A stretch of 64,000 nucleotides of DNA, taken from positions 832,001 through 896,000 of the forward strand of contig OZ241322.1 of assembly GCA_965199715.1 (NCBI GenBank), in the 5' to 3' direction. Every line of letters begins with the position of its first letter. Within the stretch, counting starts at the first letter, position 1. The notes under the pieces were generated by a model. It was given only the letters and a program-made list of their open reading frames with translations. It searched no databases and had not been told where the DNA came from. The position numbers were made by a program, and so were the translations under genes. Below are positions 1 to 5,606 of this stretch, piece after piece. The stretch comes from Vicinamibacteria bacterium (GTDB lineage Bacteria > Acidobacteriota > Vicinamibacteria > Marinacidobacterales > Marinacidobacteraceae).

Positions 1-423
1 CTTCCCTCGGGCGCCGCGGCGGGGGTGCCCACCGACGCGAAGCGTTCGGCCACGTTGCTCGTCCGGAGCGCGGACTACGTGATCTCCGGCGGGCGACACA
101 CTCGGCGCCGGCGCATGGATCGTCTTCCCCGCCACGGGGAGATTGGTGAGCGGGCGCCAGTCTCGCTTCGCCGAGAACCGCCCCATGTGGATCGTCACTT
201 CCGGCAGGGCGCCGAGCGCACTCAGATATGCCTGCTGGCGTCCGGGCGCTCGCGAGTCCGGATTCCCGGCGATGCGGGCCGTGAAGTACCGCACGCCCCC
301 AACCACCGCGTCACACCAAAACAGTTCACGGGCAAGGTCCACGAGGTTCAGCCACTTGAACGGAGTGCCTCGGACCGCCCCGTAGTGCAGGTTGAACCCG
401 TCAACGTAGACACGAACGCGCAT
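1..423 (-). CDS. NYN domain (LabA/DUF88, PIN-like) putative ribonuclease, 3' end runs off the window
   Basis: Manual translation of the minus strand from ATG 423: MRVRVYVDGFNLHYGAVRGTPFKWLNLVDLARELF...VRYFTARI...RQQAYLSAL...IHMGRF, open to position 1. The VYVDGFN and RYFTA motifs are typical of NYN proteins. Not in the ORF track because it has no stop within the window. Confidence 0.85.
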   Translation of the reverse strand, partial: MRVRVYVDGFNLHYGAVRGTPFKWLNLVDLARELFWCDAVVGGVRYFTARIAGNPDSRAPGRQQAYLSALGALPEVTIHMGRFSAKRDWRPLTNLPVAGKTIHAPAPSVSPAGDHVVRAPDEQRGRTLRVGGHPRRGARGK

Positions 424-469
424 CCCCATCCCGACGACTCCCGGAGCCGCACCGCAGGGCCCTCTGGAT

Positions 470-487
470 TCGGCGACCGGTCGCCGA
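470..487. repeat. Perfect 18-bp palindrome TCGGCGACCGGTCGCCGA upstream of the NYN gene
   Basis: Read directly from the sequence. Confidence 0.8.
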
Positions 488-536
488 CGGGTGGCTACTT
501 TTTCGAGATGGGCGCAGGAACCGGGGCGCGGTTCGT

Positions 537-715
537 CCCGGAAATACGCTGGGGCCGCCCGGCTGGACGGCCCCAGTACCGACGGCGCGCCGCCGGCCGG
601 TCAGAACATGGACTCTAGCGCATCCGAGCCGCCCGTCAAGGAGGAAATGCGCCCGGAATCACGCTGGGGCGGCCCAGTTGGACGGCCCCGGTACCGACGG
701 CGCGCCGCCGGCCGG
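537..715. repeat. Two 64-bp imperfect direct repeats (537-600, 652-715), each able to form hairpins
   Basis: Manual alignment gives 58/64 identity. Minus-strand copy 1 folds CTGGGGCCGTCC-AGCC-GGGCGGCCCCAG (12-bp stem with one G-U) preceded by a 7-bp stem. Confidence 0.9.
612..639 (-). promoter_or_regulatory. Putative sigma70 promoter TTGACG-N16-TAGAGT facing repeat copy 1 and the NYN gene
   Basis: Minus-strand -35 at 639-634 and -10 at 617-612. Confidence 0.55.
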
Positions 716-749
716 AAGCCCGGCGCATCGCTCGCCTAGGCTTCCCTGA

Positions 750-2594
750 ATGGCCTATCGCTCGCTCGCCGCGGCCGTCGCCGACCTTGAGCGGAACCGG
801 ATGCTCGTCCGGATTCCGAACGAGGTGGACGGCCACCTTGAAGCCGCCGAGATCCAGCGCCGGACCTACGCCGCACGCGGTCCGGCGATCCTCTTCGAGC
901 GGGTCAAGGGATCGCCGGTTCCGTGCGTCTCCAACCTCTTCGGAACGCCGGAGCGCGCCCGCTTCCTGCTCCGGCACGGGCTTGAGAACGCCAAGGCCGC
1001 CGTGCGCTACCGGGCGAAGCCGGGCCGGGTCCTCGCCGACCTCGGCCGGCCCCGGGAGCTGCTCCGCGCCGCCAACGCGGCGGTGCACTCGCTCCCCCGC
1101 CGTCGGTTCCGACCGGCGAGTCAGGCGGTGCGGATTCCGCCGGAGGAGATTCCGGCGATCACGTCGTGGCCCGACGACGGAGGCCCGTTCATCACGCTGC
1201 CGCAGGTCTTCACCGAGGAGCCGCCCGGAGGAAAGCCGCTCCGTTCGAACCTCGGGATGTACCGGGTGCAGCTCTCCGGCAACGACTACGCCCCGGGCGA
1301 GATCGGGCTGCACTACCAGATCCACCGGGGCGTCGGGGTCCACCACACGGCGGCGCGGGAGCGCGGCGAATCGCTGCGGGTGAGCATCTTCATGGGCGGC
1401 CCGCCGGCGCACACGCTCGCCGCGATCATGCCGCTGCCGGAGGGCCTCTCCGAGCTGCTGTTCGCCGGGATGCTCGGCGGGCGGCCGTTCCGCTGGGCGC
1501 GGGACCCGGACGGCTTCCTCGTTTCGGCGGACGCCGACTTCACGATCACTGGCTGGGTGGATCCGGAGCGCACGCTCCCCGAGGGTCCGTTCGGCGACCA
1601 TCTCGGCTACTACAGCCTGACGCATCCCTTCCCGGTGCTCACGATCGGGCGCGTCCACCGCCGGAGGGACGCGATCTGGCCGTTCACGGTCGTGGGCCGG
1701 CCCCCGCAGGAGGACGCCTCGTTCGGGTCGCTCATCCACGAGATCACCGAGCCGATGGTGCCCGAGACCCTGCCCGGGGTGCATTCCGTCCACGCGGTGG
1801 ACGCCGCCGGGGTGCACCCGCTGCTGCTCGCCGTGGGCAGCGAGCGCTACGTGCCCTTCGCGGAACGGCGGCCCCGGGAGCTGTGGACCATCGCCAACGC
1901 GATCCTCGGGTTCGGGCAGTGCTCGCTCGCGAAGTACCTGTTCCTCGCCGCGAAGGAGGACGACCCGGCCCTGACCGCCTCCGACGTGCCGGCGCTCCTC
2001 GGCCACGTGCTGGAGCGCGCCGACTTCCGCACCGACCTGCACTTCCAGACCGCCACGACCATCGACACGCTCGACTACTCGGGCACGGGGCTCAACATGG
2101 GCTCCAAGCTCATCGTCGCCGGAGCCGGGCATCCGAGGCGCAAGCTCGCGAACGCGATTCCCCGCGAATACGGCGAGGCCATCCCCGAAGGGTTTCACGG
2201 CCTGCGCCTCGTGCTGCCCGGCGTCGCAGTCCTCGGCGGGCCTCCCTTCCGGGGCCGGGCCGAACGCGATCTGAGGCCGTTGTTCGAGGCGCTGGACGCG
2301 GCGCGAACCGACCTCGCCGGGATTCCGTTTCTGGTGTTGTGCGACGACCCGGGGATGGCCGCAGAAAGCCTGCGGAACCTGCTCTGGGTCGCCTTCACCC
2401 GCTCCAACCCCTCGCACGACGTCCACGGCCGCAACGCCGCCATCCGCGACAAGCACTGGTCGTGCGAGGAGCCTCTGGTGCTGGACGCCCGCCGGAAGCC
2501 CCACCACGCCCCGCCGCTGGTCGAGGATCCGGCGGTCACGCGGAAGGTGGACGCGCTCGCCGCTCCGGGAGGGCCGCTCCACGGCGTCCTGTAG
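750..2594 (+). CDS. UbiD family (prFMN-dependent) decarboxylase
   Basis: NLGMYRVQ, EGPFGDHLGYY, VVGRPPQED and DTLDYSG motifs; 614 aa. Confidence 0.9.
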   Translation: MAYRSLAAAVADLERNRMLVRIPNEVDGHLEAAEIQRRTYAARGPAILFERVKGSPVPCVSNLFGTPERARFLLRHGLENAKAAVRYRAKPGRVLADLGRPRELLRAANAAVHSLPRRRFRPASQAVRIPPEEIPAITSWPDDGGPFITLPQVFTEEPPGGKPLRSNLGMYRVQLSGNDYAPGEIGLHYQIHRGVGVHHTAARERGESLRVSIFMGGPPAHTLAAIMPLPEGLSELLFAGMLGGRPFRWARDPDGFLVSADADFTITGWVDPERTLPEGPFGDHLGYYSLTHPFPVLTIGRVHRRRDAIWPFTVVGRPPQEDASFGSLIHEITEPMVPETLPGVHSVHAVDAAGVHPLLLAVGSERYVPFAERRPRELWTIANAILGFGQCSLAKYLFLAAKEDDPALTASDVPALLGHVLERADFRTDLHFQTATTIDTLDYSGTGLNMGSKLIVAGAGHPRRKLANAIPREYGEAIPEGFHGLRLVLPGVAVLGGPPFRGRAERDLRPLFEALDAARTDLAGIPFLVLCDDPGMAAESLRNLLWVAFTRSNPSHDVHGRNAAIRDKHWSCEEPLVLDARRKPHHAPPLVEDPAVTRKVDALAAPGGPLHGVL

Positions 2595-2687
2595 GCGCCG
2601 CGCCTCCGCACTCCGGTACGATCGGCGCCCGACTCTCGAGCGTTCCGTTCGGGATCGGTCACGCACTGTTACGGGAGGAACTCCGAC

Positions 2688-5606
2688 ATGACCAGCGCAC
2701 ACCGCTCCAGGCTTCGTGGAAATCCGCGGCGTGGCCGGCGGGGCATTTGTGCGGGGGCGGCCGTTGCGGCCGCCCTGCTGCTCGCGACTCCCGCGTTCGC
2801 CCAGTACGGGCAGATCGAGGGAACCGTCGCGGACTCCACCGGGGCCGTCCTTCCGGGCGCGACGGTCACCGCGACGAACGACGCCACCGGCGTGTCCCGT
2901 TCCGCCGTGACCGACGCGGGAGGCGGCTACCGCCTGCCGGCGCTGCTTCCCGGCGCTTGGTCGGTGACCGCCGAACTGACCGGGTTCGGCACGGTCGTCA
3001 ACCAGAGCGTCGCGCTGTCGATCCAGCAGACCATCGTCATGAACTTCGAGATGGGCCTCGCCCAGGTCGAGGAAATGGTGACCGTCACCGGCGCCGCGCC
3101 GCTTCTGGACACGCGCCGCTCCGACGTCTCGACTTCGGTCTCCGACCTCCAGATCCAGGACCTGCCGGTCGCCTCCCGGCGCTGGGTGGACCTCGCGCTG
3201 CTGACGCCGGGCACCAGCCAGGACGCCATCCGGGGCTTCTACTACCGGGGCAACGTGAACATGGGCGGCGGCGGGCGCTACTACGCCAACGGATTCATCG
3301 TGGACGGCGTGAACAACACGTGGGCCGAGATGGGCGAGGCGCGGCAGAACTTCCCCATGGACGCCATCGGCGAGTTCCAGATCACGACCAGCAACTTCAA
3401 GGCGGAGTACGGCCTCGCCACCGGCGGGCTGATGACGGTGGTGACCAAGTCGGGCACCAACAATTTCGCCGGCAGCGGGTTCTGGTTCTTCCGCGACCGG
3501 TCGCTCACCGAACTCACCTACCAGCAAAAGGAGTTCGCGGCCGACGACCCGGACTTCGAGGAGCCCGCCTACCGGCGCCACCAGTTCGGCGGCTCGCTCG
3601 GCGGCCCGATCCGGGAGGATCGCACCCACTTCTTCTTCGCCTACGAGCGGACCAACGAGGAGCTCTTCTACGACATCTCCACCGGCGGCGTGTTCCCCGA
3701 GCACGAGGGCACGTTCCCGAAGGACGAGTGGCGCTACATGTGGCTCGCCCGGATCAACCATCAGGTGAACGAGGACCACTCGGTCTGGCTGCGCGTCGCG
3801 TGGGAGAACGAGTATCGGCCGAACCTCAACGCCCGCGGGATCACCACCGAGGGATTCGACTTCGCCGTGCCCCGCAACGCGGAGGTCGTCGGATGGACGT
3901 GGGTGGCCGGCGAGGACGCCCTGAACGAGTTCCGCTTCCAGCGGGCGTTCTCCAAGTACGAGGTCAGCCCGGCGTTCAGCGCCGGCTCCTACGACGCGGG
4001 CGACTTCAGCGACGAGCGGCTGGGCCTGTGCGACGTGAACATCCGTCGCCCGAACCTCCGAACCGGCTCCTGCAACGACCAGATGGGCCCCGAGTACCGC
4101 TGGCAGTTCAAGGACGACCTGACCCTGTTCCGGCAGGGGTTCGGCGGAACCCACCAGCTCAAGCTCGGCTTCGACTACAACTGGATCGACTTCTCCGCGG
4201 ACATCGTGAACAACTACGCGGGGACGTTCACCTTCGACACGAACGCGCCCTTCGACACGAACGACCCGGACACCTACCCGATCCAGTACTCCCAGTCGCA
4301 GCCGCGCTACGACGAGGTGCCCGTCCACCACTTCTCGGTGTACGCGCAGGACGACTGGGTGAGCGACCGGCTCACCCTGAACCTCGGACTCCGCTACGAC
4401 CTCCAGTCGGGCACGTTCAACGAGGACATCACCTCGATCCAGTTCCCGATCCCGGTGCCCTTCCACGACGGGGCCGACCGCCGCGGCGACCTGAACAACC
4501 TGGGTCCCCGCATCGGGTTCGTCTATGACCTTTCGCGCGAGGGGACCGGGCGCACGACGGTGAAGGGCGGCTACGGCAAGTTCTTCGAGAACATCCGGAC
4601 GCTGACCAACTTCGGCGAGCGGTGGTGGCACCAGGCCTCGACGATCATCATCAACGACCCGGACTTCCTCGACCCGCTCGGCGGCCGTTCCCGCGAGGAG
4701 TACCTCTCGACCGCGGCTCCCAACATCACGATCCTCGACAACGACTACGAGCAGCCGTACGCCCACCACTTCAACGTGGGCGTGGCCCATCAACTGGGCG
4801 AGACCGCCGCGCTGTCGCTGGACCTGACCCGGGTCATGACCCGCGCCGACGCGATGCGACGCGTGAACCTCAACTACGCCATCGACGGCGTGCGTCCGTA
4901 TCCGCAGTTCCGCCGGGTGGACGCCACGTACTCGCTGCTCGACCACGACTACTCGGCGTTCTACGCCAAGTTCGAGAAGCGGTACTCCGACAACTGGCAG
5001 TTCCTCGTGAGCTACACGCTCGCCAAGTCGGACTCGACCGAGCTGTGGACCCGCAACACGAACCCGAGCGGCTGGCATCCGGAGTTCCCGGGGTACACCG
5101 AGGTGACCCGCCCCGGCGACACCGACCGCCGGCATCGGCTCGTGTCCAGCGGCATCCTCACGCTTCCGGGCGACATCCGGCTCTCGGCGATCCTCGACTA
5201 CCGCTCGCCGCTTCCGGTGCGGGTGGACTCGGGAACCAACCTGAACGGCGACGACTACGGCGGCGACCTCGCTCCGGGGTTCTCCGCGGACAACGCCTAC
5301 GGCTGCCGCAACCTCGACCTCTCGGCGGCGAACGCCTATCGGCAGTCCATCGGGCAGGCGGCGGCCAGCGGCTTCGAGTGCTCCAACTTCCTGAACGTGG
5401 ACTTCCGCGCCTCGTGGGGCATGTATCTCGGGATCCACCGCTTCGAGGTGGTGGCGCAGGCGCTGAACGTGTTCGACCGGGCGAACTTCGACACGCCGGT
5501 CGGCAACCTGCGTTCCGGGAGCTTCGGCGAGAACGACCTGTCGCTGGCCTCGAACATCAACGCGCCGTCCCGCCAGTTCGAGCTGGCGCTGCGCTACTCG
5601 TTCTGA
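2688..5606 (+). CDS. TonB-dependent receptor (Oar-like, N-terminal carboxypeptidase regulatory-like domain)
   Basis: Signal peptide, GTVADSTGAVLPGATVT, TKSGTN, YAQDDW, LNLGLRYD and C-terminal LRYSF. Confidence 0.9.
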   Translation: MTSAHRSRLRGNPRRGRRGICAGAAVAAALLLATPAFAQYGQIEGTVADSTGAVLPGATVTATNDATGVSRSAVTDAGGGYRLPALLPGAWSVTAELTGFGTVVNQSVALSIQQTIVMNFEMGLAQVEEMVTVTGAAPLLDTRRSDVSTSVSDLQIQDLPVASRRWVDLALLTPGTSQDAIRGFYYRGNVNMGGGGRYYANGFIVDGVNNTWAEMGEARQNFPMDAIGEFQITTSNFKAEYGLATGGLMTVVTKSGTNNFAGSGFWFFRDRSLTELTYQQKEFAADDPDFEEPAYRRHQFGGSLGGPIREDRTHFFFAYERTNEELFYDISTGGVFPEHEGTFPKDEWRYMWLARINHQVNEDHSVWLRVAWENEYRPNLNARGITTEGFDFAVPRNAEVVGWTWVAGEDALNEFRFQRAFSKYEVSPAFSAGSYDAGDFSDERLGLCDVNIRRPNLRTGSCNDQMGPEYRWQFKDDLTLFRQGFGGTHQLKLGFDYNWIDFSADIVNNYAGTFTFDTNAPFDTNDPDTYPIQYSQSQPRYDEVPVHHFSVYAQDDWVSDRLTLNLGLRYDLQSGTFNEDITSIQFPIPVPFHDGADRRGDLNNLGPRIGFVYDLSREGTGRTTVKGGYGKFFENIRTLTNFGERWWHQASTIIINDPDFLDPLGGRSREEYLSTAAPNITILDNDYEQPYAHHFNVGVAHQLGETAALSLDLTRVMTRADAMRRVNLNYAIDGVRPYPQFRRVDATYSLLDHDYSAFYAKFEKRYSDNWQFLVSYTLAKSDSTELWTRNTNPSGWHPEFPGYTEVTRPGDTDRRHRLVSSGILTLPGDIRLSAILDYRSPLPVRVDSGTNLNGDDYGGDLAPGFSADNAYGCRNLDLSAANAYRQSIGQAAASGFECSNFLNVDFRASWGMYLGIHRFEVVAQALNVFDRANFDTPVGNLRSGSFGENDLSLASNINAPSRQFELALRYSF

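Follow-up and report, generated by a model that had tools for sequence, protein, structure and literature searches.

At the start of a 64,000-nucleotide (nt) stretch of a Vicinamibacteria genome (G000:C1:832001-896000, hereafter the window) lies a gene of the NYN family, for which the original prediction had proposed an upstream region of duplicated structured RNA units with a promoter of its own. The gene is present on the minus strand as claimed: its 5′ part occupies positions 1..429, beyond which it runs off the window, and the whole gene (G000:C1:831653-832429) encodes 258 amino acids and is assigned by PADLOC to the HEC-09 family. Its start had been placed at 423, a choice favored by homology (MRxRVYVDGFNL), the alternative being ATG 429. 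Alignment recovers the two proposed direct repeats upstream of it, at 537-600 and 652-715 (64 nt each, 58/64 identical or 91%, period 115 nt). Between them, on the minus strand at 639..612, is the sigma-70-like promoter TTGACG-N16-TAGAGT, the sole promoter-like site in window positions 1-3000, where shuffles lead one to expect 0.1. By a covariance model (R1), built from an alignment of leaders of homologous genes together with the G000 copies, which are thus scored as members of its training set, the repeat at 537-600 belongs to a leader element that covers 527..612 of the minus strand (copy 1, 67.2 bits). On this strand copy 1 forms, as anticipated, a hairpin of 7 base pairs (bp) (hairpin 1, 596-579) and another of 12 bp (hairpin 2, 576-549), with the U-rich tail CGUAUUUCC directly 3′ of the latter (548-540); none of 200 shuffles folds as well (-44 kcal/mol, z -2.9). 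The -10 hexamer of the promoter ends 10 nt 5′ of the conserved AC(C/G)G start of the element, a spacing equal to that in homologues.

Two copies had been recognized, and a third, degenerate one at 419-503 (minus strand, 44.1 bits by R1) had been overlooked in the canonical place directly 5′ of the start codon. This proximal copy has kept hairpin 1 (UCGGCGA/UCGCCGA), with compensatory changes; its hairpin 2 is degenerate, with several non-standard helix 2 pairs marked by R1, its U run is gone, and its minimum free energy fold differs from the two-hairpin fold. The repeat at 652-715 (copy 2, element 645..727, minus strand, 50.0 bits) lies upstream of the promoter, shows no evident promoter upstream of itself and folds no better than shuffles (z +0.54). 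Copies 1 and 2 match the element of the homologues along their entire length, and 419-503 aligns too; the order on the NYN sense strand is copy 2, promoter, copy 1 (intact helices, 3-U run) and proximal copy. The three copies stand 108-115 nt apart, with unrelated spacers, and are not arranged head to tail. A tandem duplication of a 115-nt unit was considered and rejected: the spacers that follow copy 2 and copy 1 are unlike by eye, and therefore this is no simple tandem repeat. A terminator-like call on the plus strand at window 479-505, GGTCGCCGACGGGTGGCT followed by ACTTTTTCGA, is probably the reverse reading of the proximal hairpin 1 and the preceding A run, and not a separate feature. A strain variant of the locus on a sponge metagenome contig carries two changes within hairpin 1 of copy 1; on our reading of them as RNA, the loop CGCG would become CGUG, as in the family, and a G-C pair would be replaced by G-U.

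The protein (P0001) matches the PADLOC HEC-09 profile (PDLC04163) at E 4.1e-38 and 129 bits, in two stretches flanking an insert, and the PADLOC scan returned HEC-09 alone, with no ToxN, CptN or TenpN assignment. The Pfam NYN family (PF01936) reaches E 5e-4 and 21.0 bits, under its cutoff of 24.2 and over residues 159-206 only; precomputed PF01936 matches are present on many homologues. Of 6348 candidates in a word-indexed protein search, 1415 had E <= 0.001; the best 120 are 253-316 amino acids long and 51-58% identical. Invariant across 30 aligned sequences are D10, N13, D152, E162, E163, S166, D167, N169 and N191-D192-T193-D194. An AlphaFold 2 model (mean predicted local distance difference test score 74.8) has a confident core and low-confidence insert segments at 86-113 and 134-163, and Foldseek matched it to the LabA-like 2qip (E 3.8e-5) and to the MARF1 NYN structures 5yaa (probability 1.00) and 6fdl (0.96). 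As modeled, then, the protein has an NYN fold with conserved acidic residues, as in the PIN-like nuclease family. The portion of the HEC-09 preprint available to us (bioRxiv 10.1101/2024.01.29.577857) presents HEC-09 as an Hma-embedded defence candidate, described as MARF1-like, and in that portion mentions no upstream RNA and says nothing on toxicity. The G000 protein is of the same family by the PADLOC model and shares the MARF1-like NYN fold; its gene differs in lying between alpha/beta hydrolase and UbiD-family genes and not embedded in Hma, and no Hma genes were seen in the stretch examined around it.

Genes homologous to this one are preceded by the same element. From 578 relatives we took the best 80 as homologue loci, and for the 30 closest of them with a complete or almost complete gene (43-58% protein identity) we read 130 nt of upstream sequence. 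These 30 span Acidobacteriota, Gemmatimonadota, Nitrospirota, Alpha- and Gammaproteobacteria, and others; related sequences in these comparisons are not independent of one another. The element is found in all 30 of these loci, about 62 nt long and located at about -75 to -12, each time as one copy at the gene; duplication, a feature of the original prediction, is thus not a trait of the family. Its consensus is (A/U)UACCCGCCGGCAGCGUGCUGUCGGCUCAAGGGCCGCUCC-loop-GGAGCGGCCCUUGCUUUUU, followed by the ribosome site and the start codon, and its shape is a conserved UACCC, an 8-bp hairpin with a GCGUGC-type apex, one unpaired base, a 12-bp GC-rich hairpin and a U-rich tail. Indeed, a covarying two-hairpin motif is what had been proposed as the thing to seek upstream of homologues, and RNAalifold returned 8-bp and 12-bp helices joined by one base, with compensatory double changes in 14/20 pairs. 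In this structure 98.6% of 659 cells are paired, and the 14 double-change pairs compare with a shuffled mean of 4.6 (0/500 shuffles reach 14) and with 3-5 when the pairing partners are slid by 1-3 columns. The structure belongs to the sense RNA, because 71 cells are G-U and 650 cells pair on the NYN sense strand as compared to 582 on the antisense strand, which extends to the homologues the argument from G-U pairs first made for copy 1. Judged by sequence, the G000 repeat is a diverged copy of a conserved two-hairpin leader RNA of HEC-09-type NYN cassettes, and the proposal of a structured sense-strand RNA with its own promoter, tied to the NYN gene, holds across phyla with covariation.

The remaining parts of the leader are similarly ordered. 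Within the 60 nt upstream, the best sigma-70-like site ends 8-12 nt 5′ of the conserved ACCCG in 22/31 sequences, copy 1 included, and therefore transcription would be expected to start 2-4 nt before UACCC. The 12-bp GC hairpin is located directly 5′ of the ribosome site in each of the 30 homologues and is followed, in 17 of them, by at least 5 consecutive U. A terminator scan called a site in the chromosomal homologue L017 (itself a HEC-09 match at E 1.7e-37) and none at G000 hairpin 2. Searches with Rfam 15, which includes the abiF motif RF03085, gave 6 matches in window 1-3000, all below gathering; one weak match only in five homologue loci; and 19 matches in the L017 leader, the best at 23.4 bits against a gathering score of 47. 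The weak matches to 6C, CC2171 and BjrC68 merely share the generic hairpin-plus-terminator shape and were set aside. Literature searches found no paper joining NYN genes to an upstream RNA. What is new here is that the repeat is a member of a conserved two-hairpin RNA absent from Rfam 15.

When R1 was run on the 80 homologue loci, 32 scored at least 69 bits at the canonical place, including L040 and L058, which lie outside the training set, and about 19 further loci, mostly of a subfamily of ~210 amino acids, had full-length matches at E <= 0.01; 18/80 loci were without a plus-strand match at the gene at E <= 1. Extra copies occur in L032 (beside a transposase), L039 and L077. In L077 they form two weak tandem matches (L077:2774-2862 and 2922-3007) 5′ of a short-subfamily NYN gene, the sole tandem case besides G000 among the 80 genome loci. 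In a sample of the phylum, 2/150 other genomes contained an R1 match at E <= 1e-5, one of them followed by an NYN gene; tblastn found no NYN gene near the weaker one (G088, 31 bits), which may be a chance match. An unpublished genome (G089), on which nothing else said here depends, is counted in this tally and in the same-genus tally for G188 given below. At 28 genome loci, the open reading frames (ORFs) closest to the gene on either side revealed no conserved gene, partner protein or protein antitoxin; these neighbors are heterogeneous and include three integrases, two transposases, a reverse transcriptase, HipA, a NERD-kinase, tRNA synthetases and metabolic enzymes.

We also searched in the reverse direction, from RNA to gene, with a 30-letter degenerate pattern over hairpin 1 and the linker. 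The pattern matched 1 viral stretch and at least 119 metagenome stretches; 81 stretches were examined. In 65/81 of the matches listed an NYN homologue begins 36-69 nt after the pattern, and among the matches listed 21 of those 65 NYN genes encode proteins <=40% identical to P0001. The leader is thus found before NYN genes of <=40% identity, and therefore the RNA sequence is held tighter than the protein. Of the 16/81 listed matches without a downstream NYN gene, four have <450 nt of downstream DNA. Aligned to R1, the metagenome matches had 99.6% of cells paired and 9 double-change pairs as compared to 4.3 in shuffles, in an alignment that is fitted to R1 and whose hairpin 1 is constrained by the search pattern. 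On this comparative evidence of conservation across phyla, covariation and a constraint tighter than that on the protein, the structured RNA is very likely functional.

These searches bear as well on the idea that the repeat is a chance GC-rich repeat, or a dispersed element of the repetitive extragenic palindromic (REP) or miniature inverted-repeat transposable element (MITE) type, unconnected to the gene. At 71.5% G+C the genome is GC-rich, and fragments of the palindrome, 14-19 nt in length, do recur in it. Full-length copies of the repeat, on the other hand, are confined to this locus in the 2.66-megabase genome by both blastn-short and the covariance model: R1 finds three matches (67, 50 and 44 bits), all here, the next best being at E 0.33. 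Genome-wide scatter of the kind that the original prediction had held to count against it is thus not seen, and conservation of the element before homologous genes extends to many phyla. The genome-wide blastn and R1 searches and the reverse element search rule out a dispersed REP/MITE repeat, and an origin by chance or dispersal is scarcely credible.

Comparison with related genomes suggests how the module arrived: on sequence grounds it was acquired in G000 as a 1.07-kilobase (kb) single-gene insertion, which carries three spaced copies. In G001 and G003, of the same genus, the alpha/beta hydrolase and UbiD-family genes are divergent neighbors ~50-90 bp apart, and G000 carries ~1.07 kb extra there, comprising the NYN gene, its 5′ region and every copy of the repeat. 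On the left it is bounded by the hydrolase start codon, overlapped by the NYN stop (ATGA); its right edge is at about 720-740, past copy 2, with the junction at 716..749 and same-genus homology resuming at about 724-742, just 5′ of the UbiD-family ATG at 750. The NYN protein was found in 0/24 other genomes of the family (3 of the same genus) and in 2/16 further genomes of the order, at E 3.2e-20 or weaker and with <=49% identity over partial stretches. A similar case is G188, whose cassette is a ~1.2-kb insertion that seven same-genus genomes lack at the orthologous site. An eighth, G193, retains a decayed cassette (L234, G193:C1 about 4031523-4031799) in which the promoter and leader, 85% identical to those of G188, are fused to the last ~150 nt of the gene, the middle ~600 nt being deleted. 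Decay of this type could be one way in which orphan leader copies arise.

The position of copy 2 exactly at the insertion edge, together with the orphan copies (L032 beside a transposase, L039, the decayed G193 cassette), could speak for a role in DNA, be it as the palindromic operator of a repressor, as a site of recombination or as the end of the mobile cassette. However, the helices are strand-specific through their G-U pairs (71 cells; 650 sense versus 582 antisense), the covariation runs via G-U intermediates, and no recombinase is conserved nearby. At its upstream edge the G188 cassette has ~220 nt of other sequence and no copy of the element, and on this ground the element was rejected as a cassette end. 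We consider a DNA-level role very unlikely.

Leaders are also found on plasmids. Distant relatives of the protein (24-36% identical) are encoded on 133 plasmids and one mycobacterial prophage, and six relatives that were tested (five plasmid genes, two of them from E. coli plasmids, and L103, a short-subfamily gene from a metagenome) match HEC-09 at E 1e-28 to 1e-47 and all carry leaders. For example, 4.6-kb ColE1-like E. coli plasmids (17 records) present, in order, a promoter-like site, a hairpin array, the hairpin AAACCGCAGAUGCGGUUUUUUUU, a ribosome site and a HEC-09 NYN gene. The array consists of four tandem units of CCUGUGGCGUGCCGCAGG plus spacer, 29-33 nt each, or of five units in one variant plasmid; its periods are 33 nt over 2.6 copies (96% identity) and 29 nt over 3.3 copies, and the last unit is set apart by a compensated stem change. 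No site was listed when the E. coli plasmid leader was scanned for terminators, and the terminator hairpin is here a putative one, based on RNAfold and our own reading. On a Phaeobacter plasmid the array hairpin occurs once and is followed by CUCAA and then by a terminator hairpin with a U run; this leader links the tandem array to the two-hairpin element. The leaders of a Granulicella plasmid and of a 3.4-kb E. coli plasmid likewise open with UACCC and a hairpin, and Xanthomonas and Thiothrix plasmids have a different leader with a strong terminator just 5′ of the gene. In NZ_CP122759.1 (L222:1324-2148) and other 4.6-kb plasmids the annotated NYN coding sequence begins upstream of the array and terminator hairpin; judged by homology, the start in NZ_CP122759.1 is near 1507, and the deposited coding sequence appears to be over-extended across the array.

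The arrangement resembles two kinds of system in which an RNA controls a toxic protein. In AbiF-RCd22 of the Clostridioides difficile phi027 prophage (PMC12373285; its RNA is the abiF motif, Rfam RF03085), the gene of a toxic abortive-infection protein and its ribosome site lie behind a constitutive sigma-A promoter, two copies of a conserved hairpin motif and a Rho-independent terminator. The short RNA predominates over read-through; it reduces expression in cis, and in trans it binds the protein directly and neutralizes it. This order of parts is shared with the NYN leader, where a terminator-like hairpin stands in the terminator's place. The protein is Abi_2/AbiD/F there and NYN here, the RNA motifs are unrelated (no match to that motif in the Rfam searches here at E up to 10), and the functional steps, all demonstrated there, are here proposed by analogy. 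Type III toxin-antitoxin systems (ToxIN, CptIN, TenpIN) are built (PMC3401426) from a promoter, RNA units, a terminator and an endoribonuclease gene. They share with the NYN loci the order of parts (with a terminator-like hairpin at the latter), the lack of a protein antitoxin and an occurrence both on plasmids and as solitary chromosomal loci, and the E. coli plasmid relatives add 4-5 head-to-tail units of 29-33 nt. In contrast, the toxin candidate is NYN/PIN-like and not ToxN, CptN or TenpN; the G000 family has one unit, a plain hairpin plus a terminator hairpin with no pseudoknot evident; and the three copies of G000 are 108-115 nt apart and not head to tail. The type III-like build of the original prediction therefore stands for the conserved order of promoter, RNA, terminator-like hairpin and RNase gene, and fails for the toxin, which falls outside the type III families. 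Because the toxin family differs and head-to-tail repeats are absent in this subfamily, we do not class it as a type III system, and propose by analogy that the NYN leader may work like type III toxin-antitoxin systems or AbiF/RCd22 without type III membership.

In the mechanism that we envisage, a sigma-70-type promoter would start transcription a few nucleotides before the conserved UACCC, and many transcripts would stop or pause at hairpin 2, so that NYN levels stay low and a ~60-nt RNA is released. Hairpin 1 would then be the handle by which this RNA binds the NYN RNase, either holding it in check or being cut by it. In G000, copy 1 would supply the promoter, and the proximal copy would be one without its terminator hairpin. 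Hairpin 1 and UACCC are conserved beyond what a terminator needs and occur in tandem in some relatives; on these sequence features a protein-binding role is their best explanation, with NYN as the simplest candidate partner. It is inferred that transcription terminates, that a short RNA results, that this RNA binds the protein and that the protein is toxic, and we give even chances to the combined proposal that the leader attenuates NYN and yields a ~60-nt RNA that binds the NYN RNase, in the manner of AbiF/RCd22 and type III systems. More tentatively, the HEC-09 NYN gene and its leader might constitute a fourth, very widespread RNA-antitoxin (type III-like) abortive-infection family, in which the UACCC-hairpin unit, single or in tandem, would bind and silence the RNase, the module being reused by other single-gene effectors such as a PD-T4-6-like kinase; we regard this extension as doubtful.

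Several observations weigh against the proposal of an attenuating, NYN-binding RNA. The U run is weak in 13/30 homologues and is 3 U in copy 1 of G000, and therefore termination may be poor, in which case hairpin 2 must serve some other purpose. The long stem of copy 2 (hairpin 2) has two unpaired, uncompensated positions. The sole RNA data are metatranscriptome contigs (two runs, depth ~4-6) that overlap parts of the locus, among them the gene body and both copy 1 flanks, with the copy 1 stretch itself (L001 10509-10591) uncovered in both runs, a gap to which we attach no meaning; at this low depth they are uninformative on starts, ends, strand and level, and DNA carry-over is possible. HEC-09 protected against none of the phages in its one published test (bioRxiv 10.1101/2024.01.29.577857), a silence that leader control might explain. 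Lastly, the same leader stands before a few non-NYN genes, contrary to a strictly NYN-specific RNA partner: several of the 16 NYN-less matches in the reverse search precede other genes (6 were scanned) or no clear gene. For example, on the metagenome contig L171 a leader with a longer hairpin 2 (element 1151-1243, minus strand) precedes a Ser/Thr kinase (Pfam Pkinase 3.4e-20; PADLOC PD-T4-6 3.9e-20), which suggests, as far as sequence can indicate, that the leader is common to different single-gene defence candidates. Other non-NYN cargo includes a 350-amino-acid protein that weakly matches a winged helix and small proteins without a family assignment, and the leaders of such cargo often have the longer hairpin 2. 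Together with a viral copy described below, this cargo fits a general control module better than an NYN-specific antitoxin.

The presence of the leader before the kinase, the 350-amino-acid winged helix-turn-helix protein and others is indeed what one would expect if it acted in cis only, as a portable promoter-plus-leader that sets low expression or mRNA stability for costly single-gene cargo, with hairpin 1 recognized by a host factor or RNA polymerase and no RNA antitoxin involved. The terminator-like hairpin directly 5′ of the ribosome site in 30/30 homologues is in keeping with such a role, and the cis effect of RCd22 alone is reported to cut abiF expression 17-fold (PMC12373285). However, the near-invariant UACCC and hairpin 1 would be superfluous for a pure attenuator, the 4-5 tandem hairpin-1 units of the E. 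coli plasmids and the three copies of G000 would be left unexplained, and hairpin 2 is retained where the U run is lost. A purely cis-acting leader is thus possible, and we consider it less than probable.

The viral copy (L100:1488-1573) stands alone on a phage-like contig; a small ORF follows ~170 nt downstream of it, and then genes for a terminase small-subunit-like protein and for the terminase large subunit, all in the same orientation. A model for a phage late-operon leader is PR′-tR′ of lambda (6S RNA), whose short structured RNA is made close to the promoter and terminated before the genes under its control are reached; the put RNA of HK022 consists of two stem-loops joined by one base. 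Both resemble the NYN leader as short structured promoter-proximal RNAs with a terminator or terminator-like hairpin before genes. The NYN leader has no similarity to them in sequence, its cargo is one gene that is not a phage gene, and no partner acting as antiterminator was found for it. One might picture the unit as a mimic of such a leader, through which a phage antiterminator or altered polymerase reads past hairpin 2 and turns the nuclease on, leading to abortive infection; that the cargo genes are defence candidates would suit this, as would the viral contig. Yet there is one viral case only, and no antiterminator gene was identified beside its element by PHROGs or Pfam, which gave no function for the upstream ORFs of the contig. 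Moreover, the weak U runs of many copies leave little to antiterminate, and we judge such a tripwire to be improbable.

If the proposal of an attenuating, NYN-binding leader RNA is correct, the logic of RNA-controlled toxins seen in type III systems and AbiF/RCd22 would extend to NYN/PIN-like RNases. The orphan defence candidate HEC-09 thereby gains a testable control mechanism, and the 4.6-kb E. coli plasmids offer a natural setting in which every step is testable in a laboratory strain.

Around the cassette, the G000 neighbors of the NYN gene are the alpha/beta hydrolase, a porin and the UbiD-family decarboxylase. The same hydrolase/UbiD slot in the sister species G002 holds a 580-bp insert with a 115-amino-acid ORF (L008:1042-1389, plus strand), whose product is a C-terminal piece, covering profile positions 60-131 of the Pfam NYN model (E 6.7e-12), of a different NYN domain. 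This ORF is on the opposite strand and gave no BLASTP alignment to the G000 NYN protein, and the G002 insert has no R1 match. The UbiD-family decarboxylase of G000 (750-2594, plus strand) has all three UbiD domains, and its best NCBIfam match is the menaquinone biosynthesis decarboxylase model, below cutoff (339 versus 496). The inserted cassette has left ~30 nt of ancestral upstream DNA 5′ of its start codon.

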